From Psammoneis japonica (Eukaryota), in the NCBI GenBank assembly GCA_008632985.1, contig QPGO01000274.1:1-53858 (forward strand): a stretch of 53,858 bases of DNA, given 5' to 3'. The notes below the pieces were generated by a model. The model was not told the origin of the DNA and ran no database searches. It saw only the letters and a program-made list of their open reading frames with translations. Below, in pieces: positions 1-53,858 of this stretch (position 1 is the stretch's first letter; every line of letters starts with the position of its first letter). The translations under genes were made by a program, and so were the position numbers.

Positions 1-69
1 TTCAATGACTTGTTTCAACATTTCAGCGGACTGGCTGTCAAAAACAAAATTCGTGAACAACATCATCAG

Positions 70-1951
70 TCCGGCAATGCCGGCCCTTTCTCTCGTCGGC
101 TTTGTGCTGTTGTGCAACCCGGGATGTTTCCTTTCACGCAAGGTTTGGGTCATTGCATCGGCGAACTTTCCTGCTTCGTCGACATCACCACCCAGCCCGA
201 GGTTCCTGTTGGTGTCCTCCCTTGCCTTTTGAACCACGGCCTTTGCAGATTCGCAATCGGAAGTGAACAGATGCTTGAGCACCATTTTCCCAAGTTTTTC
301 GTGCGCTTCGATGTGCTTGACGCCGTCACTGCCTTTCTCCTTCGGCTGCATCGCCTCCTCGTCTGCGACCACCTTCCTGCATCGCAGCTCACCCAACATC
401 CATTTGTGCGTGTTCAGTTGCGCGTCGTCGAGCAAACTGATGAAAGTCCTTAAAGCTTCGCCTTGAACCCGATGTGGTGTCGGCTTGGATGACCTCGCTG
501 GCATCTTTTGCAAAGGAACAAACTTCTTTCCCCAAAACAATCATGCTTGATGTGCGGTTCGGATTTTCTTCAACGCACGGAGACAACATCGCCAATGGGT
601 CTCTTTCGACATCCTGTCCATGAGTGCTTGTTGTTCACAATTCAATTTTTTCCCCAACAACTCACTGAATTGCCTTGGGGGAAACATCTGCATCAGTGCC
701 AGGTCAACGCCCAACACGCGGTGCTGTCCATCGAGGAAGGAGTTCCGAATGGCTGCAATTGCTTGCAACATCAGCTTGCATTCCAACATGAGAATGGATT
801 TGTTGCGTGTCGTCTTGTTCTTGCAGTGTGTGAAAGGGGCGAAATTTGCGTTTTGAATGACAAAAGTTCGGCACAAGATGTTTTGCAATCTTTTGTGCAA
901 GGATTCAAAATTTGCCATCTTCCTCAAAGAATTGCATTGTTGATCCAAAAGCACATGAAGTGTGCATGTCAGGAAAAGTCCCTTCTGCCGACTGTTTCCA
1001 GTTGTCTTTCACATTCATCAATTGCGTCCTTGTGTCCGCATTGTCGCCCTCCATCTTGGCGTGTGTGAGCAATGCAGACAGCCCGAGCGCGTGTTCCTCG
1101 GCAACAAAGGATGCGCCGGCATTGCTCGAACTTGGTTCGCTGCAATCACGGCAGAGCTCACAAGCCGGAAGCACCTTTCCAAATTTTGCAGTTTCATGTG
1201 TGACCGCACAGGGCGTCACTGTGTGCGGCACAATGTTGAATGATTTGCTGGAAAGCCCATGCGCACTCTGCAAAGTCCCCACACGGTTCTTGTCGGAGAC
1301 TGGTGCCAGCGGGTTGTAATCTGGGTTGTAGATCTTTTCGTTGTTGGCATGCCTTTGGTTGACATCTGGTTGACTGAGAGGACACATGGCTGCAACATCG
1401 CGGTTTCTTGCACAAGTCACCCCCGCGAACAGAGAGATGACCACCGGACTGACGTTTGCGTTGACCCTGTCGAAGCAATCTCCCATGTCTGCCCCCTTTT
1501 CTCTGTTGTTCTTTCGTTTGTTCATCAGTTTTTCCCAATCTTCGTTGGTGAATTCCTTCAGTTTGCAGGGGACACCTTTCGACAGGGGACATGACGGTGG
1601 CTCCAATTTCTTGAAGCACTCGTCATCTGATCTCACATCCCCCATCGGATTCTTTGGCACTGTTGCGTCCTTCACGATCACTTTGCCACAAATGACCCTG
1701 AAAATGGTGTGCACCTGCTCCACTGTCAATTCTTCATCAATCGGTGTGATTTTGTTGTGGGCTGCTGCCACACACCCAGGACTGCCCATCTCTCGCAACA
1801 TCAAGGTTCCCACCAAATTTCCAATTGTCCATTCTTCGCCGATCAGGTCTTTCATCATTTCCCTGTCGTCCTTGCTGATGGCTGCGTGGAATCTCAACGC
1901 CTGTTTGCCGTTGGTTGCACAAGGGAAAAAGGTCAAAATGTCGTTTGGCAA
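70..1951 (-). pseudogene. Degraded gene for an uncharacterised protein
   Basis: Protein-like ORFs 905..1951 (348 aa) and 541..954, with same-frame continuation past a TGA to about 70. Cys/His-rich and Tyr-poor. No family recognised; boundaries approximate. Confidence 0.4.
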
Positions 1952-2058
1952 CTCTTGTTGCCCTGGTGAGAAATGGAGATGGCGTCGTCTCTATTTTGCA
2001 CAACACGCTGTGTCAGACAGACATCCTCACGCCGGTGCATGATCGGTGCGGGCACGTG

Positions 2059-2511
2059 TCAATTTTTCCAAACAAACTTGGTGACGGACAGACCGTGTGA
2101 AATGGAGACGGCATCGTCTCCATCTCGCGCAACACGCAACATCGGACAGACGCTTTTACAATGCCGGGTGCAGTGACGCACGGTCACAAACTTCAACAAT
2201 GGAACCAGGAACCAGGAATCAACGCATGCTCGCCATTTCAGTTTGGCATTTTTGCCCTTGGCCACCCATTTCTTGTTGAACCGCAAACAAATGCCATGGC
2301 AATCGTCCTCCTTCCACCAGTCGCAGATTTCGTTGTGAGTGCCCCCTTTTTCCTCGTTTTCTTTAAACTCGCAAGGCAAGGCATCCACAAACACCCAATC
2401 GGCACCGTCATCCCCCCTGCAGCAAGTTTTCACAGTTGTGCCTGTTGGTGCATGATGACAGTCACCGCCGGGATCGTCTTGTGCTGTGAGCAACGAGCTC
2501 GGCACGTTCAT
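2059..2511 (-). pseudogene. Small hypothetical protein, probably TpA-eroded
   Basis: ATG at 2511 (MNVPSSLL...) within ORF 2059..2619; globular-looking sequence (DWVFVDALP, WWKEDD). The 3' end is uncertain because native stops may be mutated. Confidence 0.3.
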
Positions 2512-5500: not shown

Positions 5501-5770
5501 GTCAATCCAATGTCTTGTTTCACAACTGCACACGGTTGTTGTCCACATGTGTGACAAGGAATGGCATCACAAGCTTGTCACTTCGAAAACTTCCACTGGC
5601 AGTGGTGCACCCCGGGAATGGCCAAATGTGTTGACAGATTTTTCGCAGTTTCCAACGACTCTTTCCGACGCCCTCGAGTTCATGTCCCGGAACCAACAGT
5701 CCACTTGTTTCAAGCACTGCTCCCATGCTGTTGTGAGAGAATGTGAGTTTTTTGTCATTCCCTGTCCTCC

Positions 5771-6146: not shown

Positions 6147-6537
6147 GACGCGTTCCAGCCGCAGGTGGGACTCCGTGTGACATTGGGCCCGCAGAATTCT
6201 GCGTGCGAGCTCCGCAGTGCGAGAATTCAATCAATGGACACATTTGTCTTCAACATCAAATAAACGGCCAAGTTTGTGGCACAATTGTGCCTCTCACCAC
6301 TCGACTTTTTTTGCAAACACGCCTGCCCCACGCGATTCTTAAGACATTGTAGAATCGCGCTGTAACAAAAAATGTCAAAAGTTGTTGGACGGATCGCTCA
6401 ACAAGTGCACCGTAAAATGACACAAAATGTCAAAAAAATCACGTAGAAATCTACGTGCGCGACATGCGACGTGATTCAAAAAACTGTCGATGTCACAGTT
6501 CAGCAGTGCGAGGTCCCACCTAGACCTGGAACACGTC
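6147..6537 (+). mobile_element. MITE family A, copy 1 (391 bp)
   Basis: Imperfect ~27-bp TIRs gacgcgttccag..aggtgggac / gtcccacctagacctggaacacgtc. 4-bp TSD TCTC (6143-6146, 6538-6541). Homologous to three other copies in the window. Confidence 0.92.
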
Positions 6538-11421: not shown

Positions 11422-12479
11422 TCCCTTTTCATTCCTGTGATGGAAACAAGCACACACTGAGTGAGTGACAGACAGACCTCCAAGCAAAGAAGGCTGTCGC
11501 TCGCCCCACCGCTGTTGCGGCCCGCCCTTGTCCTCTTCCTTCTTGGGAGTGCTGCACTCAGCACAAGCAGAAGACATTGGCTGTCTCTCACCTTGCCCCC
11601 TCTTTGATGCTTGGCGTTGTGGTGTCATCTTTGCGGAGTGCCTCTTTTTTCTTCTGGTGCCTTCATTTCCCCTTTCCATTTTCCCCCTTTCATGCGGTGG
11701 GCAGTCCAACAGTTCACAATGCAAGATTCAAGCCACACATCTTTGTCAATGGAAGGGTCCCACAGGTGCAAATGACTCTTCTTAAAAGTTGGCTTTTCAT
11801 CCTTTGGCCGTGGCTGTTGTCCTTGTTTGTCTGGCAAATCAAACAAAAACATCATTGGGGGTGGAAAATGACTCCGATGCTTCACCTTTGTCAACAGGGA
11901 TGCATTTGCTTGCTGGAGCCCATGACCCTGCCGGCGGCTCTTTTGGGGATGGAAGCTCTTCAGGAAACAAGGAGGGCTGGGGTGATGAGGCGCCCATGGC
12001 AAACAGAAAAGACAGATGCTGCTGACAGTGCCGCTGCTGCTGCTGATTGTGTGCCGACAGCAGAAGACAAAGCAGAAGGCAGAGAGACACCACGTGCCAG
12101 AAGTTCACACTGCACGCATGCAGACCCTGCCTGCACAGGCTGTTCAAAAAAGTCACCTCTGTTGTGCTGTCATGGCTTGTCCCAACCAGGTCAGAAAGGA
12201 GCACATTCATGGAAGCCAAACACCAAGAAGCCTTCAAGCCTTCAAGCAGACAGCAGACAGTGCTGCAGACCCTGCTGGCATGAAATGCAGGACTGGGCGG
12301 CGAGGAGCTAGAGAGAGTGGAGAGCAGGGAGGGTCTCACAAGTTCTGTGTTAATTTGTTTTCACTCAGGAGCTTTTAATCATCACAAATGCAGCCTCCAA
12401 ATTGTGACCATGACACTAAAACAATTTGCAGAACTGCATTGAAGAATGGGACGACGTCCCCAGAGATGAGCTGGGGACA

Positions 12480-15400
12480 TTAAGATGCACACTCCTCCAA
12501 CTTTCTCTTGGTCCCTCTTTCTTGTGCAGGTTCTTTCTTTTGAACCAAATGGGGCTTGTTTGTCAAGAGCCAAAAAACAAAGCTCGCGTTGCTGTGGCGA
12601 CCCGCCAACACACGCGGCCACAGCGAATCGGGCCTTTTGTCTTTGCTGAGCCGCAACAAGTGACGTCCAGCCTTGTTCATTTGGCAAAAGCAATCCATCA
12701 CCCGTTGAGTCTCCCCAATCGGCATTGTGACGCGTTTCAAAGAGTGCGAGGCTTCTCCAATTTCTTCAGGTGTGATTTCCAGCTGAGGGTTTCCCCACAA
12801 ATTAAGTTTTTCAAGATTGGGCAGCGCCAAAACCTCTCGCGGAATTCCAGTCAATTGTGTGCAATTAGAGAGATCCAACGATTTCAATCTTTTGAGCAAC
12901 CCCATCGCAGGAGGCAACTCAACAAGGCCATTGCAACAGGCCAAGCCCAGTGACTCAAGACCCACAAGCTGGGAAACGCTCTCTGGCAACTCAGTGAGGG
13001 ATCGACACCCTGTCAAACTGAGCCTTTTCAAACTTGAAAGTTGGAAGAGCTCATCTGGCAACTCAGCAAGTTCTGTGCACCCCTCGACAACCAACTCTTC
13101 AAGTTTTGCAAGTCATCCAATCTCTCAGGCAAGGTGACAAGACGCAGAGAACCATCTTTGGAAGCAACCGTCAACTCTTTTAGGTTGGTCAACTGTCCAA
13201 TCTCTGGAGGCAATCGCTCAAGACGATGGCAGTGGATCAGCGTCAATGTCTTGAGGTTTGCAAGTTGTCCAACTTCGCCAGGCATGGCAACAAGACTCTC
13301 AGCATTGAAGATGGTCAACTCAATCAAGCTTCTCAATCCTCCAATCTCAGCAGGCAAGGCCACAAGACTCTCACTCCCGAAATCCTCAACTTGGTCAAGC
13401 TTCTCAACTGTCCAATCTCAGCAGGCAAGGTGACGAGACTGATGCTTTCAACAACCAGCACTTTGAGGTTAGACAGCTGTCCAATCTCTGGAGGCAACTG
13501 CACGAGAATCTCGCAACCCCGCAATTTGAGCGTCTCAAGGTTTGCAAGTTGTCCAATCTCAGCAGGCAAGGTGACGAGACTCCAACTTTCAACAACCAGC
13601 TCTTTGAGATTAGACAGCTGTCCAATCTCTGGAGGCAACTGCATGAAACCGTGGCAACCCTCCAATTCGATCGTCTCAAGGTTTGCAAGCTGTCCAATCT
13701 CAGCAGGCAAGGTGACGAGACTAAAACTTGCAACAAACAGCACTTTGAGGTTAGACAGCTGTCCAATCTCTGGAGGCAATTGCACAGACTCTTGCAATGC
13801 CTCAATTTGAGCGTCTCAAGGTTTGCAAGCTGTCCAATCTCAGCAGGCAAGGACAGAAGACGCTCATTTGTGGAAACTTCTAAGGTTGTCAAGCTTCTCA
13901 ACTGTCCAGTCTCTGGAGGCAACTGCTCAAGACGCGAACATCTTCGAAGGTGCAGTGCTTTGAGATTGGACAGCTCTCCGATCTCTTGAGGCAACTGCTC
14001 AAGATGCAAACTTTCAACAAACAGCAGACGCGTTCCAGCCCCAGGTGGGACTCCGTGTGACATTGGGCCCGTAGAATTCTGCGTGCGAGCTCCGTAGTGC
14101 GAGAATTTAATTGATGAATGTGTTTGTCTTCAACATCAAATGAACGACCAAGTTTGTGGTGCAATTATGCCTCTCACCACTCGACGTTTTTGCAATTGCA
14201 CCTGCCCTGCGCGATTCTTAAGACAGCATAGAATCGCACTGTGACAAAAAATGTCAAAAGTTTTTGGATGGATCGCTCAATGAGTGCACCGTAAAATGAC
14301 ACAAAATGTCAAAAAATCACGTAGAATTCTACGTGCGCGACATGCGACGAGATTCAAAAAACTGTCGATGTCACAGTTCAGCAGCACGAGGTCCCACCCA
14401 GACCTGGAACGCGTCAGCACTTTGAGATTAGACAGCTGCCCAATCTCTTGAGGCAACTGCATGAAACCGTGGCAACCCTCCAATTTGATGGTCTCAAGGT
14501 TTGCAAGTTGTCCAATCTCAGCAGGCAAGGTGACGAGACTCCAACTTTCAACAACCAGCTCTTTGAGGTTAGACAGCTGTCCAATCTCTGGAGGCAACTT
14601 GCCAAGATTGTCGCAACCCTCCAATTTGATCGTCTCAAGGTTTGCAAGTTGCTCAACTTCACCAGGCAAGGCCTGGAGCCAATGGCCACGGAAAACTTCT
14701 AAGGTCGTCAAGCTTCTCAACTGTCCAATCTCTGGAGGCAACTGCTCAAGACGCAAACATGCTCGAAGGTGCAGCACTTTGAGATTGGACAGCCGTCCAA
14801 TCTCTGGAGGCAATTGCTGAAGACGGATGCAGTTGAGCAGCGTCAACGTCTCAAGGTTTGCAAGTTGTCCAATCTCAGCAGGCAAGGTGATGAGACTCCA
14901 ACTTTCAACAACCAGCTCTTTGAGGTTAGACAGCTGTCCAATCTCTGGAGGCAACTTGCCAAGATTGTCGCAACCCTCCAATTTGATCGTCTCAAGGTTT
15001 GCAAGTTGCCCAACTTCACCAGGCAAGGCCTGGAGCCAATGGCCACAGAAAACTTCTAAGGTCGTCAAGCTTCTCAACTGTCCAATCTCTGGAGGCAACT
15101 GCTCAAGACGCGAACATGCTCGAAGGTGCAGCACTTTGAGATTGGACAGCCGTCCAATCTCTGGAGGCAATTGCTGAAGATGGATGCAGTTGAGCAGCGT
15201 CAACGTCTCAAGGTTTGCAAGTTGTCCAACCTCAGCAGGCAAGGTGACGAGACTCAAACTTTCAACAACCAGCTCTTTGAGATTAGACAGCTGTCCAATC
15301 TCTGGAGGCAACTGCTCGAGACGGAGCAATTTGAGTGTGACCAGCCAGTGCATCATGACAATTTCAGATGGCAATGTTCTCAAACAACCTGGAGGAATTG

Positions 15401-15539
15401 CCGTGCAGGAGGCGTTGACGAATCCTTCGCATCCTGGCTCAATTGTGACATGCTGGGAAGACGCCAACTGCTCCACAGACTGTCCTGTGGCTCGAGCCAA
15501 TGCAGCAAGGATTTGTGCAGACTGCTGTTTAGCATCCAT
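12480..15539 (-). pseudogene. Leucine-rich-repeat protein LRR-A, copy 1 (MITE insertion, frameshifts)
   Basis: Many LPxEIGQLxNLxxL repeats. C-terminal MNKAGRHLL...LWPRVLA...FVFWLL domain. Split into ORFs 14277.., 13404.., 13333.., 13028.., 12480... Confidence 0.92.
14027..14415 (+). mobile_element. MITE family A, copy 2 (389 bp), inside LRR-A
   Basis: Termini gacgcgttccag...ctggaacgcgtc; TSD AGCA. Excision restores the LKVLFVESL reading frame. Confidence 0.95.
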
Positions 15540-16122
15540 CTCTTTGTTCTTCAGATGCAAGGATCCGACACAAAGCGATGGACGTCAGGGTTGATGCGGA
15601 TGACAGCGTGTTGGCAAATGGCGGTTGCTGCCATTGTGGTTGCAGAGGAGCGAGGAGTGGGGGAGGATGGATGTGTGCTGTGCCCCCTCACGCACATGTG
15701 CAAATTCATCTCCGAATGGCAGTTCACAGCGTGGGTGTGCCCCGGGGCCATGCCTGCACGACATGCATGCGCGACTGCAACAGCACAGAAAGCACAGCAA
15801 CTGTGCGTTGCAAGGTGTGTCCCCTCACATGTGCAAATTCATCTCTGCATGGCAGTTTGTGACGTGGCTCAGTGTGCCCCGGGGCCGTGCCCGCACGACA
15901 TGGCATGTGGGCACACGCGACTGCTGCTGCATGCACAAATCCATCTCCAACTTGCACTGCTGCAACAAGCACTGCTGTGACAAGCACTGCTGCAACAAGC
16001 ACATCACATCATTTCACCGCCTTTTTGTTGTTCTGTTGACAAGGAGGGAGTTGCTTCGACCCTCGTTTGGCTTTGCGCCTGCCTGTGTGGCACGTTCCAA
16101 AAGAAGAGCACCATCACGCACC

Positions 16123-17301
16123 ATGGAGGATGGCAAAGCGCTGCATGGCCTCAGCACATTGGCTCGAGCAGTGGGGCTGTCTGAGGAGGCTTTGATGGAG
16201 CGCAAACAAATTTTCCCAATCTTGAGTGAAGATCGTTGGGCGAGAATGAGAGAATCACCACCTGAAACAGGCTTGCTGCACCGACTGACTACACTGGACT
16301 TGTCATCCTGCCGGCATCTTGAGCAATTGCCGCCACAGATTGGACGGTTGACCGGCCTCAAAGTGTTGCGCCTTGTTTGTTGCACGAGTCTTGTTGATTT
16401 ACCTGATGAGATTGGACAGTTGCGGAGCTTGGCGGAGTTGCATTTGTGTGGGTGCACAGAGCTAAAACGACTGCCGCATGGAGTTTTGCACCTTACAAAC
16501 CTGGGGGAGCTGGAGATCAAACACTGCACAGAAGTCACTGAGTTGCCAGATGAACTCTTCTGACTGCCAAATTTGAAATGCTTGCAGTTGGAACATTGTG
16601 ATTCCCTCACTGCGTTGCCAGCGAGAGTTTCCCAGCTGACAAGTCTCGAATCGTTGCACGTGTCACTTTGTGGCAAAATGTCAGAAATTCCTGTTGAGAT
16701 TGGCCACCTCTCCAACTTGCAAACGCTTGAGCTGCGCGGATGCAGAGGCTTGAATGATTTCCTTCAAAATGGCACAAGCGGCATGGTGAACCTGACTGGA
16801 CTGGATTTGAGTGACAATGCTGACATCATTGAGTTGCCTGTTGCAATCGGGTCACTTGAATCTTTGAAAGAGTTGTGTTTGATGGGTCGCACGCAATTGA
16901 CTCGCACTCCAAAAGAGGTTCTGGGGCTTCCAAATCTCACAGATCTTAATTTGTGGGCATGTCGTGAGCTGAAGACAACACCGGAAGAAATTGGAGAGGC
17001 TTCGCATTCTTTGAAGCACATGGAAATGCCGACCGAGGAGACTCAAGCGAAGATGGATTGCTTTTGTCAAATGAACAAGGCTGGACGTCACTTGTTGCGT
17101 TGCAAAAGAGGCGCACCCGCTGCCATTTGGCCAAATGTGTTGGCGGGTCCTTCCAGTGATGAAAACTTTGTTTTTTGGTTCTTGACGCACAAACCTCACT
17201 TTGTCCAGAAGCACCAGGGAAAAAGAGGAACCAAGAGAGCTGTCGAGGAGCAGGACAGCACAGTGCGGCAGGACGTTCGTCAACAGATTGCTCAGCCATG
17301 A
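16123..17301 (+). pseudogene. Leucine-rich-repeat protein LRR-B, copy 1 (premature TGA at 16561)
   Basis: LRR repeats plus the same C-terminal domain as LRR-A. TGA here corresponds to CGA at 23982 in copy 2. Confidence 0.92.
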
Positions 17302-17326
17302 AGCTCAGACTGCGCAGCAAAGATTG

Positions 17327-17547
17327 TCGTCCTCAATGTCTGCCATTGGGACGACACAAACCTGGCAGAGCTCCGTTCTTGTCTCTGCTCTAGAGTGCCC
17401 TTTCCTTTCAAATTCATCTGGTTGAAAATGCTGCAGTCATCCTCAATGTCTGCCATTGGGATGACACAAACCTGGCAGAGCTCCGTTCTTGTCTCTGCTC
17501 TAGAGTGCCCTTTCCTTTCAAATTTATCTGGTTGAAAATGCTGTAGT
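17327..17547. repeat. Tandem duplication, period 110 bp (also at 24748-24968)
   Basis: cctcaatgtctgccattggga...ggttgaaaatgctg at 17331 and 17441. Confidence 0.95.
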
Positions 17548-17763
17548 TGGCTTGACACTCGCAGCAGGCCCCTCTGCCTCGTCAGCCAGCCAGCGGGTGG
17601 CAGAGAGTGCCATGCTGCACTGTAGAGCTAGCTTAGAGCAGGCAGCAGTCTCTTAAGGGCAGTGGGGAGCACAGTGCTGCACTGTCCCCTGCCATGAATC
17701 TAAAGATGCTCGCGATGGATCCGTTGCAGTGGTGTCCCAATTAAACACATTAAAGCATTTTTT

Positions 17764-19190
17764 CTAATGGGAGTCTTTCGACAGTCTTTCGAGACGGTCA
17801 ATGATGCCTTTTCCAGGAGAAAATTCCTGGCCGACCATCGCTTGAACCTTTTGGACCAGCGCCCTTTCCGCAGCAACAGAGAAAGTCCCACATTTAAAGG
17901 TGAGCTCTTTGTGGCATTCGCAGGAGCAACCCCTGCAGCCGCTGCACATTGCACAGTGACAGTCCTCGCACTTTTTCATGCATCCAACTTCCTTTCTTGC
18001 TGTGAAATGACCTGTGTGATTGATGGAGCTGATTTCACAAATCACAAAATCATCCATCTGTTTGAAGACCTTGTGCAAGCCTTCGGCACAACAGGTTGTG
18101 CCAATGTTAAAATCCTTGCTCAACAACTTGTTGCACCCGTTGCACTGCACGCACACATTCGACAACTCCTTGCTGCAAATCTTGCAAGAGCAATCGTCGC
18201 CGCATGGGTCGATCCTCAGAGTGGCCGAGTCTGGCAGCTCAGCAATGGTCACAGCATCAGGCAGCTCTGGCAGCTCTGCAATCGATGCAGCATTGGCACC
18301 CTTCTTCTTCCTCTTCCTCTTGTTTGTCTTTGCCATCTCCTCAAGTTTGGCACGTTCCTCCGCTAGAGAATCATGCTGCTCCTTTGACCCCTTTGCTGTC
18401 TCCTTGAACTCAACATGTTCTTCCACAATGTGGCTGAGCAAAGGAAGGATTCCCTTCAGAATGGTGTCAGTGGAGGGAAAAGCATTTGCTTCCAATCCGC
18501 GTGACATGCCAGCAGTGGGCGGCAGCCAAGAGCCATCCACAACTGGCTCGCAGGTGCATCTCTGTGCCATCCTGAGAAGGCACAGCTCCGGAATGCCTGG
18601 GATCTTCTTGCCAGCTTTGAGACCAGCTGGATGTTCGTGATCAGCTTCAGCTTCATGTTTCAACTCTGTGTGCAACTCTGCACATTCGAGCATTGTCACC
18701 GTTTCACGGGTGATGCCTTTGATGGACACACCACGGTGCATCCAGTCCCAAGCCACTGAGACACAAACTTCCGTGGCAGTGACATCACCACCCATCTTGT
18801 TCACTGCTTTTTCACGGAGGTTGGCATGGCAGTCCGAATCATGCAGTTTTGATGGCGCCATCTTCCAAAAAGCATGCATCCTGCCCTTGTTGATGTGAAG
18901 GAACTGTCCAGGTTCCAGAGCAAAAACAGACGGACAGCACCTGTTGTGACCGTGCGAAACAAAACAGTGATGGGAAACGAAAGTCGGAGAATGTGCAAGA
19001 TTCAGACGACGCAACTTGCCCCAGTTGCTTCATCTCCTTGATTGTCTGACCAGTTGGCCAATTCAGGTTCTTGCGGTTCTCCTCATGAGGGAGGCCGTGC
19101 ACAGCGTCGCAGTCCTTGTCACTGCCGTTGAGAAGGTCCACAGCCTTTTTTTTTGAATTTTTCCGGCAGTCGTCGCAACATCACGACTTC
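17764..19190 (-). pseudogene. 5'-truncated duplicate of the JmjC gene
   Basis: Matches 25185-26610 but is cut at the duplication junction, so it lacks the HxD motif. Confidence 0.88.
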
Positions 19191-19897
19191 TTAAAAGCTG
19201 GCTTTTCATCCTTTGTCCGTGGCTGTTGTCCTTGTTTGTCTGGCAAATCAAACAAAAACATCATTGAGGGCGGAAAATGACTCCGATGCTTCACCTTTGT
19301 CGACAGGGACGCATTTGCTTGCTGGAGCCCATGACCCTGCCGGTGGCTCTTTTGGGGATGGAAGCTCTTCAGGAAACAAGGAGGGCTGGGGTGATGAGGC
19401 GCCCATGGCAAACAGAAAAGACAGATGCTGCTGACAGTGCCGCTGCTGCTGCTGATTGTGTGCCGACAGCAGAAGACAAAGCAGAAGGCAGAGAGACACC
19501 ACGCGCCAGAAGTTCACACTGCGCGCATGCAGACCCTGCCTGCACAGGCTGTTCAAAAAAGTCACCTCTGTTGTGCTGTCATGGCTTGTCCCAACCAGGT
19601 CAGAAAGGAGCACATTCATGGAAGCCAAACACCAAGAAGCCTTCAAGCCTTCAAGCAGACAGCAGACAGTGCTGCAGACCCTGCTGGCATGAAATGCAGG
19701 ACTGGGCGGCGAGGAGCTAGAGAGAGTGGAGAGCAGGGAGGGTCTCACAATCTCACAAGTTCTGTGTTAATTTGTTTTCACTCAGGAGCTTTTAATCATC
19801 ACAAATGCAGCCTCCAAATTGTGACCATGACACTAAAAACAATTTGCAGAACTGCATTGAAGAATGGGACGACGTCCCCAGAGATGAGCTGGGGACA

Positions 19898-22800
19898 TTA
19901 AGATGCACACTCCTCCAACTTTCTCTTGGTCCCTCTTTCTTGTGCAGGTTCTTTGTTTTGAACCAAATGGGGCTTGTTTGTCAAGAGCCAAAAAACAAAG
20001 CTCGCGTTGCTGTGGCGACCCGCCAACACACGCGGCCACAGCGAATCGGGCCTTTTGTCTTTGCTGAGCCGCAACAAGTGACGTCCAGCCTTGTTCATTC
20101 GGCAAAAGCAATCCATCACCCGTTGAGTCTCCCCAATCGGCATTGTGACGCGTTTCAAAGAGTGTGAGGCTTCTCCAATTTCTTCAGGTGTGATTTCCAG
20201 CTGAGGGTTTCCCCGCAAATTAAGTTTTTCAAGATTGGGCAGCGCCAAAACCTCTCGCGGAATTCCAGTCAATTGTGTGCAATTAGAGAGATCCAATGAT
20301 TTCAATCTTTTGAGCAACCCCATCGCAGGAGGCAACTCAACAAGGCCATTGCAACAGGCCAAGCCCAGTGACTCAAGACCCGCAAGCTGGGAAACGCTCT
20401 CTGGCAACTCAGTGAGGGATCGACACCCTGTCAAACTGAGCCTTTTCAAACTTGAAAGTTGGAAGAGCTCATCTGGCAACTCAGCAAGTTCTGTGCACCC
20501 CTCGACAACCAACTCTTCAAGTTTTGCAAGTCATCCAATCTCTCAAGGCAAGGTGACAAGACGCAGAGAACCATCTTTGGAAGCAACCGTCAACTCTTTT
20601 AGGTTGGTCAACTGTCCAATCTCTGGAGGCAATCGCTCAAGACGATGGCAGTGGATCAGCGTCAATGTCTTGAGGTTTGCAAGTTGTCCAACTTCACCGG
20701 GCATGGCAACAAGACTCTCAGCATTGAAGATGGTCAACTCAATCAAGCTTCTCAATCCTCCAATCTCAGCAGGCAAGGCCACAAGACTCTCACTCCCAGA
20801 AATCCTCAACTTGGTCAAGCTTCTCAACTGTCCAATCTCAGCAGGCAAGGTGATGAGACTGATGCTTTCAACAACCAGCACTTTGAGGTCAGACAGCTGT
20901 CCAATCTCTGGAGGCAACTGCACGAGAATCTCGCAACCCCACAATTTGAGCGTCTCAAGGTTTGCAAGTTGTCCAATCTCAGCAGGCAAGGTGACGAGAC
21001 TCCAGCTTTCAACAACCAGCTCTTTGAGATTAGACAGCTGTCCAATCTCTGGAGGCAACTGCATGAAACCGTGGCAACCCTCCAATTCGATCGTCTCAAG
21101 GTTTGCAAGCTGTCCAATCTCAGCAGGCAAGGTGACGAGACTAAAACTTGCAACAAACAGCACTTTGAGGTTAGACAGCTGTCCAATCTCTGGAGGCAAT
21201 TGCACAAGACTCTTGCAATGCCTCAATTTGAGCATCTCAAGGTTTGCAAGCTGTCCAATCTCAGCAGGCAAGGACAGAAGACGCTCATTTGTGGAAACTT
21301 CTAAGGTTGTCAAGCTTCTCAACTGTCCAGTCTCTGGAGGCAACTGCTCAAGACGCGAACATCTTCGAAGGTGCAGTGCTTTGAGATTGGACAGCTCTCC
21401 GATCTCTTGAGGCAACTGCTCAAGATGCAAACTTTCAACAAACAGCAGACGCGTTCCAGCCCCAGGTGGGACTCCGTGTGACATTGGGCCCGTAGAATTC
21501 TGCGTGCGAGCTCCGTAGTGCGAGAATTTAATTGATGAATGTGTTTGTCTTCAACATCAAATGAACGACCAAGTTTGTGGTGCAATTATGCCTCTCACCA
21601 CTCGACGTTTTTGCAATTGCACCTGCCCTGCGCGATTCTTAAGACAGCATAGAATCGCGCTGTGACAAAAAATGTCAAAAGTTTTTGGACGGATCGCTCA
21701 ATGAGTGCACCGTAAAATGACACAAAATGTCAAAAAATCACGTAGAATTCTACGTGCGCGACATGCGACAAGATTCAAAAAACTGTCGATGTCACAGTTC
21801 AGCAGCACGAGGTCCCACCCAGACCTGGAACGCGTCAGCACTTTGAGATTAGACAGCTGCCCAATCTCTTGAGGCAACTGCATGAAACCGTGACAACCCT
21901 CCAATTTGATGGTCTCAAGGTTTGCAAGTTGTCCAATCTCAGCAGGCAAGGTGACGAGACTCCAACTTTCAACAACCAGCTCTTTGAGGTTAGACAGCTG
22001 TCCAATCTCTGGAGGCAACTTGCCAAGATTGTCGCAACCCTCCAATTTGATCGTCTCAAGGTTTGCAAGTTGCTCAACTTCACCAGGCAAGGCCTGGAGC
22101 CAATGGCCACGGAAAACTTCTAAGGTCGTCAAGCTTCTCAACTGTCCAATCTCTGGAGGCAACTGCTCAAGACGCAAACATGCTCGAAGGTGCAGCACTT
22201 TGAGATTGGACAGCCGTCCAATCTCTGGAGGCAATTGCTGAAGACGGATGCAGTTGAGCAGCGTCAACGTCTCAAGGTTTGCAAGTTGTCCAATCTCAGC
22301 AGGCAAGGTGACGAGACTCCAACTTTCAACAACCAGCTCTTTGAGGTTAGACAGCTGTCCAATCTCTGGAGGCAACTTGCCAAGATTGTCGCAACCCTCC
22401 AATTTGATCGTCTCAAGGTTTGCAAGTTGCCCAACTTCACCAGGCAAGGCCTGGAGCCAATGGCCACGGAAAACTTCTAAGGTCGTCAAGCTTCTCAACT
22501 GTCCAATCTCTGGAGGCAACTGCTCAAGACGCGAACATGCTCGAAGGTGCAGCACTTTGAGATTGGACAGCCGTCCAATCTCTGGAGGCAATTGCTGAAG
22601 ATGGATGCAGTTGAGCAGCGTCAACGTCTCAAGGTTTGCAAGTTGTCCAACCTCAGCAGGCAAGGTGACGAGACTCAAACTTTCAACAACCAGCTCTTTG
22701 AGATTAGACAGCTGTCCAATCTCTGGAGGCAACTGCTCGAGACAGAGCAATTTGAGTGTGACCAGCCAGTGCATCATGACAATTTCAGATGGCAATGTTC

Positions 22801-22960
22801 TCAAACAACCTGGAGGAATTGCCGTGCAGGAGGCGTTGACGAATCCTTCGCATCCTGGCTCAATTGTGACATGCTGGGAAGACGCCAACTGCTCCACAGA
22901 CTGTCCTGTGGCTCGAGCCAATGCAGCAAGGATTTGTGCAGACTGCTGTTTAGCGTCCAT
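19898..22960 (-). pseudogene. LRR-A, copy 2 (MITE insertion, in-frame TGA stops near 20531-20545)
   Basis: ORFs 21698..22981, 20543..21484 and 19898..20512 form one LRR frame once the MITE is removed and two TGAs are read through. Confidence 0.92.
21448..21836 (+). mobile_element. MITE family A, copy 3 (duplicate of copy 2)
   Basis: Same TIRs and AGCA TSD at the homologous site, so the insertion predates the 7.4-kb duplication. Confidence 0.95.
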
Positions 22961-23543
22961 CTCTTTGTTCTTCAGATGCAAGGATCCGACACAAAGCGAT
23001 GGACGTCAGGGTTGATGCGGATGACAGCGTGTTGGCAAATGGCGGTTGCTGCCATTGTGGTTGCAGAGGAGCGAGGAGTGGGGGAGGATGGATGTGTGCT
23101 GTGCCCCCTCACGCACATGTGCAAATTCATCTCCGAATGGCAGTTCACAGCGTGGGTGTGCCCCGGGGCCATGCCTGCACGACATGCATGCGCGACTGCA
23201 ACAGCACAGAAAGCACAGCAACTGTGCGTTGCGAGGTGTGTCCCCTCACATGTGCAAATTCATCTCTGCATGGCAGTTTGTGACGTGGCTCAGTGTGCCC
23301 CGGGGCCGTGCCCACACGACATGGCATGTGGGCACACGCGACTGCTGCTGCATGCGCAAATCCATCTCCAACTTGCACTGCTGCAACAAGCACTGCTGTG
23401 ACAAGCACTGCTGCAACAAGCACATCACATCATTTCACCGCCTTTTTGTTGTTCTGTTGACAAGGAGGGAGTTGCTTCGACCCTCATTTGGCTTTGCGCC
23501 TGCCTGTGTGGCACGTTCCAAAAGAAGAGCACCATCACGCACC

Positions 23544-24722
23544 ATGGAGGATGGCAAAGCGCTGCATGGCCTCAGCACATTGGCTCGAGCAGTGGGACTG
23601 TCTGAGGAGGCTTTGATGGAGCGCAAACAAATTTTCCCAATCTTGAGTGAAGATCGTTGGGCGAGAATGAGAGAATCACCACCTGAAACAGGCTTGCTGC
23701 ACCGACTGACTACACTGGACTTGTCATCCTGCCGGCATCTTGAGCGATTGCCGCCACAGATTGGACGGTTGACCGGCCTCAAAGTGTTGCGCCTTGTTTG
23801 TTGCACGAGTCTTGTTGATTTACCTGATGAGATTGGACAGTTGCGGAGCTTGGCGGAGTTGCATTTGTGTGGGTGCACAGAGCTAAAACGACTGCCGCAT
23901 GGAGTTTTGCACCTTACAAACCTGGGGGAGCTGGAGATCAAACACTGCACAGAAGTCACTGAGTTGCCAGATGAACTCTTCCGACTGCCAAATTTGAAAT
24001 GCTTGCAGTTGGAACATTGTGATTCCCTCACTGCGTTGCCAGCGAGAGTTTCCCAGCTGACAAGTCTCGAGTCGTTGCACGTGTCACTTTGTGGCAAAAT
24101 GTCAGAAATTCCTGTTGAGATTGGCCACCTCTCCAACTTGCAAACGCTTGAGCTGCGCGGATGCAGAGGCTTGAATGATTTCCTTCAAAATGGCACAAGC
24201 GGCATGGTGAACCTGACTGGACTGGATTTGAGTGACAATGCTGACATCATTGAGTTGCCTGTTGCAATCGGGTCACTTGAATCTTTGAAAGAGTTGTGTT
24301 TGATGGGTTGCACGCGATTGACTCGCACTCCAAAAGAGGTTCTGGGGCTTCCAAATCTCACAGATCTTAATTTGTGGGCATGTCGTGAGCTGAAGACAAC
24401 ACCGGAAGAAATTGGAGAGGCTTCGCATTCTTTGAAGCACATGGAAATGCCGACCGAGGAGACTCAAGCAAAGATGGATTGCTTTTGTCAAATGAACAAG
24501 GCTGGACGTCACTTGTTGTGTTGCAAAAGAGGCGCACCCGCTGCCATTTGGCCAAATGTGTTGGCGGGTCCTTCCAGTGATGAAAACTTTGTTTTTTGGT
24601 TCTTGACGCACAAACCTCACTTTGTCCAGAAGCACCAGGGAAAAAGAGGAACCAAGAGAGCTGTCGAGGAGCAGGACAGCACAGTGCGGCAGGACGTTCG
24701 TCAACAGATTGCTCAGCCATGA
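23544..24722 (+). CDS. LRR-B, copy 2; open frame of 392 aa with no Tyr, function doubtful
   Basis: Uninterrupted from MEDGKAL to QIAQP*. LRR repeats and MNKAGRHLL C-terminal domain. Confidence 0.75.
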   Translation: MEDGKALHGLSTLARAVGLSEEALMERKQIFPILSEDRWARMRESPPETGLLHRLTTLDLSSCRHLERLPPQIGRLTGLKVLRLVCCTSLVDLPDEIGQLRSLAELHLCGCTELKRLPHGVLHLTNLGELEIKHCTEVTELPDELFRLPNLKCLQLEHCDSLTALPARVSQLTSLESLHVSLCGKMSEIPVEIGHLSNLQTLELRGCRGLNDFLQNGTSGMVNLTGLDLSDNADIIELPVAIGSLESLKELCLMGCTRLTRTPKEVLGLPNLTDLNLWACRELKTTPEEIGEASHSLKHMEMPTEETQAKMDCFCQMNKAGRHLLCCKRGAPAAIWPNVLAGPSSDENFVFWFLTHKPHFVQKHQGKRGTKRAVEEQDSTVRQDVRQQIAQP

Positions 24723-25184
24723 AGCTCAGACTGCGCAGCAAAGATTGTCGTCCTCAATGTCTGCCATTGGGACGACACAAACCTGGCAGAGCTCCGTTCT
24801 TGTCTCTGCTCTAGAGTGCCCTTTCCTTTCAAATTCATCTGGTTGAAAATGCTGCAGTCATCCTCAATGTCTGCCATTAGGATGACACAAACCTGGCAGA
24901 GCTCCGTTCTTGTCTCTGCTCTAGAGTGCCCTTTCCTTTCAAATTTATCTGGTTGAAAATGCTGCAGTTGGCTTGACACTCGCAGCAGGCCCCTCTGCCT
25001 CGTCAGCCAGCCAGCGGGTGGCAGAGAGTGCCATGCTGCACTGTAGAGCTAGCTTAGAGCAGGCAGCAGTCTCTTAAGGGCAGTGGGGAGCACAGTGCTG
25101 CACTGTCCCCTGCCATGAATCTAAAGATGCTCGCGATGGATCCGTTGCAGTGGTGTCCCAATTAAACACATTAAAGCATTTTTT

Positions 25185-40149: not shown

Positions 40150-40977
40150 TCATTCGAAACATTCCGTCACACCAAAAGTGGACACCACACAAATCATGTT
40201 ACGTCGGCCACCCTTCGTTTTGTTTGGCAACGAACGATGCATCATCCTTGCATTGAACAGGAAGCATGTTCCTCTGTCTCCACACAACAGGCGGCTTTTC
40301 CATCCCTTCCGTTCCATTGTTCTAAGCGTGTTCTTGTCGTCAAATTCAGAGTTGACACTCTGTGGCCACATTTCGACTGAGCCATTCAACTCAGTTGTTT
40401 CATCCAGAAACAAAAACAGTGTGTGCACACTTTTGCCTGCCGGAATTTTTTCCAAGAAATCGCGGTGCATGTTTTTGGTGGTCCAGAAGTTAGATCGTGA
40501 GCTTGCTGGAGGCGCGTGCACTGGCCTCATGTTTGACACTAGAATGTCAGCGCGGTCGCGAAGAGGGAAGTTTGATGGAGCTCTTTGGACAAGTTGCTTG
40601 AAAGTGTCCTTGCCTTGCGCACATTCCTTGTCACAAGATTTTGATGTTAGATCAAACAAGTGTCGGTGAGAGCGGGACCCACTCTGAAATGTGATGTCTT
40701 GTTCCACTTTGTCGACAAACTTTTCAATTTGGTTGACAATCACCGTTGTTGCCTGGAAACAATGGATGGGTTCTTCTCTCTGTTAGCCTTCGTTTGCGTC
40801 ACCAAAGTCCTTTTGCTTTTTGGTTTGCTTTTTTGAAGCGACTCTTTTGGCGATGCCACTTGGTTGTTTTCCACACGTTTGGTGGTTCATCACATTGTTG
40901 TGGCTCCGGCAAAATTGTGTTGGCCAGCGAGCATGCTTCCTGCAACCTTTCTTCTGGCATGTGCGTGACTTCGACAT
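40150..40977 (-). pseudogene. PhyH-family 2OG-Fe(II) dioxygenase with an N-terminal C-x4-C-x9-C-x2-H finger
   Basis: NMHRD...LFLDETTELNGSVEMWPQS...GDRGTCFLFNARMMHRSLPNKT..RR is the PhyH pattern. ORF 40783..40977 (CQKKGC...FCRSH) is in the same frame, separated by one TAA. Confidence 0.75.
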
Positions 40978-41138: not shown

Positions 41139-41391
41139 CTCATCGTGGAACCCCACAAATGCGTGGGGACCCGTAACCCGGAAAAGTGTAGAGTTGTGCG
41201 TGCATGTGTGGGGACTCCTTGCGCAGGCTTTGCACCAGAGCCATCTCGCGAACCAGGCGTTTTTTCGAAATTTTGTCATAGAAACTGTGCCAGTTTTGCA
41301 TGTGCAGGCTGCATGTTTCAGCACCACATGCAAAAATGCGCGCAGACCTCTGCAGGAGGGTCCCCGCGCATTTGTGGGGTTCCACGATGAA
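41139..41391. mobile_element. MITE family B, copy 1 (~253 bp)
   Basis: 33-bp TIRs tcatcgtggaaccccacaaatgcgtggggaccc / gggtccccgcgcatttgtggggttccacgatga; flanked by CA on both sides. Confidence 0.9.
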
Positions 41392-41469: not shown

Positions 41470-42208
41470 GCTAGAAGCAGGACCCAATGGTTGACAATGT
41501 CCACGGCCAAAGCCTTTTGGCCCAATCCCGGGTCCTTCACAGATGCACCGGGTGCAAAGTCGGTTGCGCGGTTCACCCGTGTGAGATCCCCGCAAGAAGC
41601 ACCCGCCATTGCACCCGCCAACTCAGACGAGACGACACAATCTACGGCTAGAAGCAGGACCCAATGGTTGCCAATGTCCACAGCTGAAGCCTTTTGGCCC
41701 AATCCCGGGTCCTTCACAGATGCACCGGGTGCAAAGTCGGTTGCGCGGTTCACCCGTGTGAGATCCCCACAAGAAGCACCCGCCATTGCACCCGCCAACT
41801 CAAACAAGACGACACAATCTACGGCTAGAAGCAGGACCCAATGGTTGACAATGTCCATGGCTGAAGCCTTTTGGCCCAATCCCGGGTCCTTCACAGATGC
41901 ACCGGGTGCAAAGTCGGTTGTGCGGTTCACCCGTGTGAGATCCCCGCAAGAAGCACCCGCCATTGCACCCGCCAACTCAAACAAGACGACACAATCTACG
42001 GCTAGAAGCAGGACCCAATGGTTGATGATGTCTGTGGCCAAAGCCTTTTGGCCCAATCCCGGGTCCTTCACAGATGCACCGGGTGCAAAGTCGGTTGCGC
42101 GGTTCACCCGTGTGAGATCCCCGCAAGAAGCACCCGCCATTGCACCCGCCAACTCAAACGAGACGACACAATCTACGGCTAGAAGCAGGCCCCAGCAGTT
42201 GACAATGT
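41470..42208. repeat. 177-bp tandem array, 4 full units plus a partial one
   Basis: ctagaagcagg starts at 41471, 41648, 41825, 42002 and 42179. Confidence 0.97.
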
Positions 42209-43934: not shown

Positions 43935-44171
43935 CAATTTGTGGAGGGACCCGCAACCCGGAAATGTGCAGAGTTCTACGTGAATGCATGGGGACTGTTC
44001 GCGTGGGTTTTGCACCAGAGCCATCTCGCGAACTGGGCGTTTTTTCGGATTTTTGTTGTAGAAACTGCACCAGTTTTGCGTGTGCAGGCTGCATGTTTCA
44101 GTGCCACATACAAAAATTCGCGCGGAGCTCCACAGGAGGGTCCCTCCGCATTTGTGGGGTCTCACGATGAG
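43935..44171. mobile_element. MITE family B, copy 2 (left TIR truncated)
   Basis: Colinear homology with 41160-41391; right end gggtccctccgcatttgtggggtctcacgatgag|ca. Confidence 0.85.
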
Positions 44172-44527
44172 CATGGGGCGTGATGTGGGGCGTGCATCAT
44201 GACATGGTGTGACAGAGCAACAACATGGGCGCCACCACTTTTCACTGAACACAACCAGCCATCATGAGCAGCACACCGGCCACTCCTTCTGCAGCCAATG
44301 GCTCAAGCCTGCCGCCGCCGGCTTCTGGAGCCTCAATTTCCCTCTCCAGCCAGTCGCCAACTTCTGGAGCCAATGTTTCCAGCCCCAGCAAGTCACCGCC
44401 TGCACCGTCTCCTTCTGCAGCCAATGGCTCACGCTGACCGCTGCGGTCTGATGGAAACCCTGTCACAAAATCGCTCTGGGATCACCATGCAAGATTCAAG
44501 GATTGGAGCAAGGCTGCCACCCAAAAA

Positions 44528-47567: not shown

Positions 47568-48892
47568 TTGATTCCACAAACAGCAAGCAGCCGAAAACCC
47601 AAGTCCCGAAAACGCAAGTCAACAAATGATGAACAGGACGGAAGCAATGTTGTGGACATGTTCAATGACTCTGAAAGCGAAGCTGATGTCGACAAGAAGA
47701 ACAACAAGAAGACGAAGAAGACGAAGAAGACAAAGCCACCGTTGTTTTTTTTCCAGATGCCTGTTGCGAATCTTTGTCGCATGATGAACTCATTGCCTGG
47801 GCAGAAAGGCTGGGGCGGATTGCATCAGAGAACTCTCTCGTGGTTGCGACTCTCAAGAAAAGCGCAGCTGCCGCAAAAGCACTGGAGGAGAAGAAAAAGC
47901 CTGCACTCGTGGATGATGCAGATGCTCCTCCTGCTCGCAACCACAAAGGCCGAGTGCCATTCACAAAAAGAGAAAAGAAAATTCTTGCCTCACCCAATGC
48001 ATGGGTGAACGACGCGGTGGTTGACTTGTGGGTGAGCAGGTGGTGAGTCGCATCTCTTTGTCTCTTTGCATGCGTTGCTCCAGCTGGCCACACTTCGACC
48101 TCACCGCACGTTCCTTTTTGTTCTTGTTGTGTGCGCAGGATGACTTGGAGGCAGGAGGGCTGTGCAAGCAACGTGGGCACAACAAGCACAATGTTTTGCA
48201 AAAAGCTTGAGGAAGAAGGAGGCACTGCCCAGGTGGAGTCCTGGATCACCAACGAAGGCGTGTTTGGAAAAAAAGTTGTTTTCCTTCCGATCCACAAGGG
48301 AGAAACTCATTGGGGGCTTTGCGCGGTTGTCAACTCCGGAGCAGTGCTGGATGAAATGAACAGCACTGGCCTTGGTTCTTGTTTGCTGTGCTGTGGTTTA
48401 CTTGCGTGGATTGTGCAATCACAGGACGAATCAGAGATTGGCTGAATTCACTGTGGGAACAAAGTGACAAAGCCCGTGAGGGCAGCGAAGGTGCTGGCGA
48501 AAAGCCATTCAATGAAAAATCAATGCCGCAAGTTGAGGTCAAAGGTGAGGTGTCTTTTGTGGCTCAGCGCTGTTCATGCTTTCAATTTCTTGCAAAATGC
48601 TCATCCCTTGCCAGGTCCATTTCAGCTGAACAGCCATGACTGCGGACTGTTTGTTTGTGCATTTGCTTGCAGATTGCTCCACTGCGTCGCTGACCATGAA
48701 ATCACCAAGGAGGACGTTTCAAACAATTTTGAAAGTGTCGTGGCTCATGTCGATTTTTCTCAGACTGACATCAACTGCTTTGGGAAGGACCACAAGATCC
48801 TCACTGACCAATTGACACAAATGCACGTGCTGTCTGGGACCCCGCATCATCAAACGAAGAAGAGAAGAAACAAGTCACCAAGCAAAAAATAA
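47568..48892 (+). pseudogene. Ulp1/SENP-like C48 cysteine protease
   Basis: WVNDAVVD, VFLPIH..THWGLCAV, QLNSHDCGLFVC motifs. Introns at 48043-48138 and about 48545-48614. Catalytic Asp region frameshifted or eroded. Confidence 0.82.
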
Positions 48893-52241: not shown

Positions 52242-52892
52242 NNNNNNNNNNNNNNNNNNNNNNNNNNNNNNNNNNNNNNNNNNNNNNNNNNNNNNNNNNN
52301 NNNNNNNNNNNNNNNNNNNNNNNNNNNNNNNNNNNNNNNNNNNNNNNNNNNNNNNNNNNNNNNNNNNNNNNNNNNNNNNNNNNNNNNNNNNNNNNNNNNN
52401 NNNNNNNNNNNNNNNNNNNNNNNNNNNNNNNNNNNNNNNNNNNNNNNNNNNNNNNNNNNNNNNNNNNNNNNNNNNNNNNNNNNNNNNNNNNNNNNNNNNN
52501 NNNNNNNNNNNNNNNNNNNNNNNNNNNNNNNNNNNNNNNNNNNNNNNNNNNNNNNNNNNNNNNNNNNNNNNNNNNNNNNNNNNNNNNNNNNNNNNNNNNN
52601 NNNNNNNNNNNNNNNNNNNNNNNNNNNNNNNNNNNNNNNNNNNNNNNNNNNNNNNNNNNNNNNNNNNNNNNNNNNNNNNNNNNNNNNNNNNNNNNNNNNN
52701 NNNNNNNNNNNNNNNNNNNNNNNNNNNNNNNNNNNNNNNNNNNNNNNNNNNNNNNNNNNNNNNNNNNNNNNNNNNNNNNNNNNNNNNNNNNNNNNNNNNN
52801 NNNNNNNNNNNNNNNNNNNNNNNNNNNNNNNNNNNNNNNNNNNNNNNNNNNNNNNNNNNNNNNNNNNNNNNNNNNNNNNNNNNNNNNNNNNN
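52242..52892. other. Assembly gap (651 N)
   Basis: Run of N. Confidence 1.
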
Positions 52893-53089
52893 GAGGAGAA
52901 AAAATGATGTCGAGGAGGACCACAACAGCAACAACGACAGTGACAGGGATGCCCACACTGCCATTGAATCTTTCGCCTTTGCCGGCGACTCCGACGATGA
53001 ACCATTGCAGGAGCAAGAGTTGACGAGTGAGGAAACCACGAATGTGGAAGGCAAGCGTTGGATGACCATGGTTCAAAGGTTTCTGACGT

Positions 53090-53680
53090 GGAGAAAGAGA
53101 CCAAAAACCTCCATTTGCTGCAAGAGACAGAGCACCTTGATGCAGCTGGAAAAATCTGCATGAGCGTGGAAGCACCGCTGCAGGAGCACGGGTCAGCTGT
53201 GGTGCCCATCCTTGTGCGTTGGGATGACTGCCCTTGTGATGATTCTGAAGAGGAGAAAGAGACCAAAAACCTCCCTTTGCTGCAAGCAACAGAGCAGTTT
53301 CACTCAGATGGAAAACATCTGAGTGATGGCTTTGACAATGCCAACAAGGGGGAGACAGCTGTTGTGGCCCTTGACATGAGCGTGGAAGCACCGCTGCAGG
53401 AGCAAGGGTCGGCTGTGGTGTCCCCCTCCAAACGTTGGGATGACTGCCCTTGTGATGATTCTGAAGAGGAGAAAGAGACCGAAAACCCACCTTCCTGCAA
53501 GAGACAGAGCAGGTTCTCTCAGCTGGAAAGCATTTGAGTGATGGCCTTGACAATGCCGACAAGAGGGAGACAGCTGTCATGGCCCTTGACATGAGCATGG
53601 AAGCACCGCTGCAGGAGCAAGTGTCGGCTGTGGTGTCCCCCCTCAAACGTTGGGATGACTGCCCTTGTGATGATTCTGAC
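53090..53680 (+). repeat. ~216-bp tandem repeat encoding an acidic unit (MSVEAPLQE.GSAVV...RWDDCPCDDSE)
   Basis: catgagc.tggaagcaccgctgcaggagca at about 53159, 53375 and 53590; probably the tail of a degraded + strand gene. Confidence 0.85.
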
Positions 53681-53858
53681 AATGAGGGTGTCAACTGTGA
53701 GCACACAAATGCTTTCATTGACAATGCAGACAGGATTCGGGGTGGTGGACCCGGTGTGGGTGTGGGTCCTGCTGAGACAAAGAAGCAGCAGTTTTTGGAC
53801 ATGATGAAACAGCAGGGGATTGTGAGCAAGGGGGGGAATGCTGACCAAGACACCTGTT

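Follow-up and report, generated by a model that had tools for sequence, protein, structure and literature searches.

Near-complete loss of TpA over 54 kb of nuclear DNA, with evidence for hypermutation in place to TpG and CpA

The 53,858-nt stretch of contig QPGO01000274.1 (hereafter the window, always at its full length) raises a simple question: why does it contain almost no TpA dinucleotides, and were they removed by mutation? An original prediction, made from the letters of the window, had noticed about a dozen TA in positions 1-6140 and proposed that a mutator is eroding TpA in the manner of a reversed repeat-induced point mutation (RIP). We counted 13 TA in this interval and 296 in the whole window, for which base composition predicts about 3295, that is an observed/expected ratio (O/E) of 0.09. 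At the same time CA (5253 against 3393 expected, O/E 1.57) and TG (4995 against 3258, O/E 1.55) are in excess and CG is depleted (1993 against 3355, O/E 0.60). The deficits of TA (about 3000) and CG (about 1360) add up to about 4360 and the excess of TG and CA amounts to about 3600, a rough mass balance. In our view the window probably belongs to a nuclear chromosomal domain, 54 kb long or longer, of a eukaryote that has spliceosomal introns, and near-saturating, strand-symmetric transition hypermutation has there converted TpA to TpG or CpA in place.

The whole window is concerned. Rho_TpA does not exceed 0.25 in any of the 52 windows of 1 kb (minimum 0.02) and is at most 0.36 in any segment of 300-700 bp; as every window and every local segment is depleted, the entire stretch is affected and the border of the domain does not lie inside it. 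The TpA cut-off for a hypermutated domain of the Bigelowiella type, discussed below, is passed in 52 of the 52 windows, and the CpA+TpG cut-off of the same preprint in 24 of the 52, calculated with a symmetrised formula of our own that may differ from the published one. The proposed strand symmetry is also borne out: TG and CA are about equally frequent (absolute z at most 2.0) in 24 of the 26 windows of 2 kb, the exceptions being two duplicated leucine-rich repeat (LRR) arrays, so that both strands have been struck equally.

The surviving TA are not randomly placed. YTAR contexts are strongly favoured (TTAA 69, TTAG plus CTAA 70, CTAG 32) and RTAY contexts are avoided (ATAT 0, ATAC plus GTAT 7, GTAC 6), and the base 5' of TA is T in 141 cases, C in 93, G in 50 and A in 12, a bias to a 5' pyrimidine and a 3' purine. 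Either the mutator prefers certain flanks, or the bias stems from the way in which TA is regenerated through C to T changes.

A change of TA to TG or CA would be expected to turn Tyr codons into Cys or His codons and to be unable to make an in-frame stop. The stop triplets of the window are in keeping with this picture, with 122 TAA and 98 TAG against 1163 TGA. Because TAA and TAG are nearly gone and mostly TGA is left, open reading frames (ORFs) are long in every frame: 38 are of at least 250 amino acids, and long ORFs occur in all six frames. The four ORFs in which the absence of Tyr had first been noticed do contain 0 Tyr (4 of 4), an observation that is partly trivial, since TA-free DNA has no TAY codons in any frame, whether coding or not.

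The direction of the change can be read from a JmjC-like gene located on the minus strand (coordinates of all features are collected in Table 1). Using tblastn with its homologues, we recovered this gene in three pieces and two frames. Both introns (26838-26740 and 26439-26358, minus strand) start with GCAAGT and finish with AG and, as it carries introns, the gene is a eukaryotic nuclear one. The metagenomic homologues of the protein (n=104) are about 35% identical to it, and 33 of these were aligned with both window copies to give 35 rows. Four columns in which the homologues have Tyr (26/26, 18/33, 22/33 and 32/33) contain C, H, C and C, respectively, in the window, and the window protein contains 0% Tyr compared with 1.5-3.9% in the homologues. 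When all 104 homologues were compared with the DNA by tblastn, the columns conserved at 70% or more had kept Cys in 16 of 16 cases, Gly in 11 of 11, Leu in 12 of 16 and His in 6 of 8, whereas conserved Tyr was kept in 0 of 2, both codons being TGC; a column with 49% Tyr is occupied by CAC.

Two motifs in which a Cys or a His had been suspected of standing in for Tyr were both found, GPNL-C-VT at 26692-26712 (minus strand) and QLNS-H-DCG at 48623-48646 (plus strand). The first belongs to the N-terminal exon of the JmjC-like gene, and Tyr is present in 12 of the 13 aligned homologues where the window has Cys; in the same exon, V-H-GLPH has His where 14 of 14 homologues have Tyr, and two Tyr (TAC) survive. 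The homologues of the JmjC-like protein therefore do not share the Cys and His of the window at these positions, where Tyr predominates. As conserved Tyr was replaced by Cys or His while conserved Cys and Gly were kept, the change is a real mutation with the direction TA to TG/CA, and this gene is no pseudogene in general decay; its damage is specific to TA. A search for homologues of a 663-aa ORF and of the PhyH ORF, either of which might have served as a second gene to polarise Tyr, detected none.

The repeats of the window provide a second line of evidence for mutation at the DNA level. TA is self-complementary, so copies of a repeat that were purged independently should show TG in one copy and CA in the other at the same site. 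The two copies of a first family of miniature inverted-repeat transposable elements (MITEs) differ in this way at 7 sites and have TA opposite one of its products at 4 more, in 232 aligned columns, and every other type of double difference occurs at most once. In a second, MITE-like family, three independent copies show 13 sites with CA opposite TG, 2 sites at which CA, TA and TG are all found and 6 with TA opposite one product, together with only 7 sites of the CG type. When alignments of paralogues within the window were pooled (27 high-scoring segment pairs and 7457 dinucleotide columns, the pairs not being independent), CA/TG doubles numbered 81, the other listed classes of double transition had 18, 14, 8, 7 and 4 members, and CG/TA and AG/GA doubles were 0. 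As the same ancestral site has become CA in one copy and TG in another, the elements still had their TA when they arrived and lost it in place, copy by copy. The purge thus acted after MITE insertion and separately on each copy.

We then considered whether true TA could have been read as TG or CA through a sequencing, assembly or base-modification artefact. A public DNA sequencing run (X1) contains 68% of the 31-mers sampled from 43.0-52.0 kb, and the Logan contigs of X1, with a depth of about 70x, span 42.4-52.2 kb and show the same TA-poor sequence. The assembly and these contigs differ at 161 positions in 9.8 kb (about 1.6% of sites), 152 of them transitions, which lends the artefact some credit in that calls at pyrimidine-purine (YpR) sites are somewhat unstable; nearly all differences in the rows listed sit at such dinucleotides. 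The classes of difference, determined from 40 of the 161 rows (36 events), are nevertheless mostly CG against TG/CA and not restored TA: the assembly has TG/CA and the reads CG in 16 events, the reverse is seen in 6, TG/CA doubles account for 4, the assembly has TG/CA where the reads have TA in 6 (3 of them inside the MITE) and 4 are of other types. The independent reads thus do not, in general, show TA where the assembly has TG or CA. As X1 is equally TA-poor at this depth and reads TA normally in other MITE copies, and as 19 of the mutations of the same kind reported in Bigelowiella natans were confirmed by PCR and Sanger sequencing (bioRxiv 10.64898/2026.01.13.699255), we regard an artefact as very unlikely. 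The differences between the assembly and X1 could come from divergence of strains or haplotypes, or from hypermutable CpG. The 4 TG/CA doubles found in the rows listed are more than CpG decay alone predicts by our own estimate.

The same reads inform on whether the loss of TA is confined to this region. At three sites of the first MITE family (43987, 44005 and 44013) the two window copies have CA and TG, TG and CA, and CA and CA, respectively, while the depth-weighted majority of the copies in X1 have the TA-making letter (1379/1792, 1638/1763 and 1080/2042), and the flanks of these other copies, seen as loose contig ends in X1, contain TA. Unlinked copies of the family have therefore mostly escaped the purge. 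By depth, 42.4-52.2 kb is single-copy with the exception of one MITE. As unlinked MITE copies keep TA and single-copy DNA is purged, targeting looks domain-wise and not repeat-induced. Thus, the idea of a mutator acting on TpA, probably locally, is supported, and the description of the locus as a repeat-rich island, with its analogy to RIP, is not.

These data also speak to a trait of the whole genome, or to selection against TA, for instance to keep out nuclease sites or UA-labile RNA. Mild under-representation of TpA is universal and gives this idea a starting point, but near-invariant Tyr were lost, non-coding DNA, introns and MITEs were purged alike, the products are TG or CA at random and other MITE copies of the genome keep their TA, which together make it highly improbable. 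Still more remote is hyper-editing of RNA from A to I by an ADAR-like enzyme followed by reverse transcription and re-integration. ADAR does prefer a 5' U, as cited by the B. natans preprint (bioRxiv 10.64898/2026.01.13.699255), but the purge is unbroken over 54 kb that include introns, both strands, intergenic DNA and MITEs in place, and no reverse-transcriptase domain was found with Pfam among the ORFs scanned. Editing confined to transcripts was rejected, since the assembly and the independent read assembly both carry the change at the level of genomic DNA.

Using full-text search, we found only one work describing this signature, a preprint by Mettrop et al. on 15 mutation-accumulation lines of Bigelowiella natans (bioRxiv 10.64898/2026.01.13.699255). 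There, 231 of 302 nuclear point mutations fall in two regions, an integrated one of a nucleocytoplasmic large DNA virus (NCLDV) and one of a provirophage; 230 of these 231 are A to G or T to C changes, every one of them at TpA. The rate is about 6e-7 per site per generation with an effect in 11 of the 15 lines only, and the genome contains 124 clusters poor in TpA and rich in CpA+TpG as well as 324 TpA-poor coding sequences (bioRxiv 10.64898/2026.01.13.699255). The novelty that the original prediction implied is lessened by this de novo spectrum, which is the same (bioRxiv 10.64898/2026.01.13.699255): the signature of a reversed RIP is real, its kind is already in print, and the window would be a further case taken nearer to saturation.

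B. natans resembles the window in the target TpA, the products, the strand symmetry, the footprint of low TpA with high CpA+TpG and, probably, the confinement to domains. An actively mutating NCLDV insert of B. natans has a Rho_TpA of 0.45, being half depleted, compared with 0.09 over 54 kb here, and the window is unlike the viral inserts described there in that it shows no viral hallmark and has introns, embedded MITEs and concurrent CpG decay. By analogy, the window would most likely reflect the same system, run to completion.

Other known systems fit less well. Fungal RIP is likewise a heritable, dinucleotide-specific transition hypermutation that strikes selected DNA, ruins its genes and can be recognised from its composition, but it turns CpA into TpA and raises TpA, the opposite of the window, and it is set off by duplication and strikes all copies, whereas here single-copy DNA is purged and unlinked MITE copies are mostly spared. 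APOBEC3 acting on retroviruses and endogenous retroviruses offers a comparable example of a host deaminase that edits foreign DNA and leaves fossil footprints, but its substrate is single-stranded cDNA, in which it turns C into U, in another dinucleotide context and with strand asymmetry (G to A). Deamination of methylated CpG drains into the same TpG/CpA and is active here, as the CpG depletion and polarised changes described below indicate, but it acts on C and not on A or T and is unable to remove TpA.

The history of the purge can be approached through the 7.4-kb tandem duplication. Of its 65 mismatches, 39 are CG against TG/CA, 5 are TA against TG/CA and 3 are CA/TG doubles. Polarised by outgroup paralogues, the changes since duplication comprise 12 of CG to TG/CA and 6 of the reverse, with TA lost once and gained twice. 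The order of events was MITE insertion, then the purge or most of it, then the 7.4-kb duplication. The domain now looks nearly burnt out, most of its present change being ordinary CpG decay of the type seen in methylated DNA; the TG/CA doubles, more numerous than expected from CpG decay by our estimate, hint that some TA was purged until recently. A secondary activity of the mutator from CpA to CpG was considered for the 6 reverse changes and rejected, as these are explicable by parallel CpG decay in the outgroup. CpG O/E is 0.81-0.85 in positions 1-6000, the most TA-free 6 kb, and 0.44-0.70 in most of 12000-40000; at 44-48 kb, which is as TA-free as the first 6 kb, it is 0.48-0.57, so that the link between TA and CpG is not consistent.

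Under hypermutation of TpA in place, each TA would be resolved at random, giving TG where the A of the strand shown became G and CA where the A of the other strand did. CpG to TpG/CpA decay of the kind found in methylated DNA goes on beside it as a second, ordinary process. Targeting would be by domain, through chromatin state or the foreign status of the island, and not by homology as in RIP; chromatin state or island identity is suggested because unlinked MITE copies escaped. For the chemistry, enzymatic deamination of an A preceded by T would give hypoxanthine, which would be copied as G and, as TpA is its own complement, both strands would be substrates. In nature, ADAT/TadA enzymes target A34, which follows U33. 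The ADAT2/3-TadA enzymes and ADAR resemble the change seen here in converting A to I, which is read as G, and in preferring a 5' U or T, but their established substrates are RNA, and activity on DNA is reported for a few cases only, which the preprint cites. To adenine deamination at TpA, as the more economical chemistry and our first candidate, we give a little less than an even chance.

The competing chemistry is oxidation of the thymine of TpA, for example by a dioxygenase of the TET/JBP type, to 5-hydroxymethyl- or 5-formyl-uracil, which would pair with G and lead to T to C. 5-Formyluracil mispairs with G, JBP/TET enzymes hydroxylate thymine in kinetoplastids and dinoflagellates, and the footprint would be identical to that of adenine deamination since TpA is its own complement. 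The 2-oxoglutarate-oxygenase-like genes of the window (JmjC-like and PhyH) are themselves purged, which speaks against a role for them, and the preprint prefers an ADAT2-like protein as deaminase, as a hypothesis only (bioRxiv 10.64898/2026.01.13.699255). We hold thymine oxidation to be rather unlikely, and leave what remains beyond these two chemistries unassigned.

Several results weigh against hypermutation of TpA as the full account of this locus, or against parts of it. In the rows listed, the assembly and X1 differ mainly by CG against TG/CA, which a TpA process alone fails to explain. The purge is not clearly running since the 7.4-kb duplication, where CpG-type changes dominate (39/65). 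That the purge is local to the domain and not genome-wide rests on one MITE family, three informative sites and loose contig ends. The sequence cannot separate adenine deamination from thymine oxidation. As regards defence, Pfam found no capsid, polymerase, packaging ATPase, reverse transcriptase or DDE transposase domain in 188 ORFs, and IMG/VR contained no relative of the JmjC-like protein when searched with two peptide patterns. With no viral hallmark and a JmjC-like gene with introns, the window does not support the defence reading in so far as this supposes foreign DNA; as many of its ORFs have no homologue of any kind, the DNA may still be foreign.

A defence role of the purge is plausible, and the preprint reads TpA hypermutation in B. 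natans in this way (bioRxiv 10.64898/2026.01.13.699255). The content of the window does not look viral. Tentatively, the mutator might instead be not an antiviral or anti-repeat device as such but a domain-wide eraser tied to silent chromatin. In this reading it can reach saturation across 54 kb or more of mostly single-copy DNA that bears introns, is of cellular type and lacks viral hallmarks; it would leave unlinked MITE copies alone and act together with CpG decay, so that TpA and CpG, the two self-complementary YpR dinucleotides, both end up as TpG/CpA.

Whatever its role, heritable A:T to G:C hypermutation limited to TpA and to chosen domains would be a new type of eukaryotic genome editing, for which one preprint exists so far. 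The window displays its end state, with Tyr-free frames, stops that are nearly all TGA and GC-AG 5' splice sites, and the long false ORFs in all frames are a trap for gene prediction. The embedded MITEs act as an internal clock and give the direction of change, and narrow the search for targeting towards chromatin, RNA guides or island identity. A Rho_TpA below 0.25 combined with CA/TG double differences between paralogues makes a simple screen for other organisms and, should the window come from a species other than B. natans, the system would extend beyond the one species published.

Table 1. Positions of the features of the window (strand. where none applies).
Feature	Position	Strand	Remarks
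TpA-purged domain	1..53858	.	TA O/E 0.09; 52/52 1-kb windows with Rho_TpA <=0.25
MITE-like family 2, copy 1	6147..6537	+	repeat alignment
MITE-like family 2, other copies	14027-14415, 21448-21836, 32417-32811(-)		repeat alignment
Tandem duplication, 7.4 kb	11778..26610 (11778-19190 and 19187-26610)	+	98.9% identical, 65 mismatches in 7425 columns
LRR ORFs	12483..17298	both	e.g. 14280-15584(-), 15604-17298(+); Pfam LRR_14, LRR_R13L1-DRL21, LRR_4, LRR_8
JmjC-like duplicate, 5'-truncated	17767..19190	-	cut at border of 7.4-kb duplication; protein 97% identical to other copy
LRR ORFs, second duplicate	19901-24719	both	repeat of 12483..17298
JmjC-like gene, C-terminal Cys-rich zinc-finger region	25188..26942	-	three exons: 26942-26838, 26739-26440, 26357-25188
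PhyH (phytanoyl-CoA dioxygenase) domain ORF	40153..40782	-	Pfam PF05721, E = 3.9e-8; Tyr 0
MITE family 1, copy 1	41140..41390	+	251 bp, perfect 24-bp terminal inverted repeats
Tandem repeat	41470..42208	+	177-bp unit, 4.2 copies; CA/TG doubles among units
MITE family 1, copy 2	43946..44173	+	high-copy in genome; depth 700-1500 against ~70 in flanks
Ulp1 (Peptidase_C48) domain remnant	48047..48889	+	matched weakly by Pfam at two places (E = 3.9e-4 and 8.7e-4); in-frame TGA at 48443-48445
Assembly gap (run of N)	52242..52892	.	

The gene content of the window was surveyed with a Pfam scan of the 188 ORFs mentioned above (18 + 66 + 104). The 66 were taken from the 75 ORFs of at least 170 aa, the 9 omitted having been scanned earlier or being copies in the second duplicate, and the 104 from the 130 ORFs of 100-169 aa, the 26 omitted lying in the LRR and duplicated block. 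Matches were of three kinds only, LRR (12.4-24.7 kb), PhyH and Ulp1, and no tRNA gene is present in the window. An in-frame TGA at 48443-48445 divides the Ulp1 domain into two ORFs; as TA to TG/CA cannot yield a stop, this TGA arose by another type of mutation, such as CGA or TGG to TGA, unless it lies in an intron that was not recognised. Judging from their sequences, the JmjC-like, LRR, PhyH and Ulp1 genes are most likely inactivated relics.

A GTAAGT donor would become GCAAGT after a TA to CA change, and the purge may in this way convert GT-AG introns to GC-AG introns. Window-wide, and counting both strands, GCAAGT occurs 33+29 times, GTGAGT 7+4 times and GTAAGT 1+0 times. The preponderance of GCAAGT (62) over GTGAGT (11) was considered as a bias in the products and set aside, being mostly explained by dinucleotide composition according to a hand estimate. 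Finally, some long ORFs that lack homologues contain in-frame tandem repeats, with units of 177 bp (41470-42208), 54 bp (46727-46889) and 150 bp (30826-31121).

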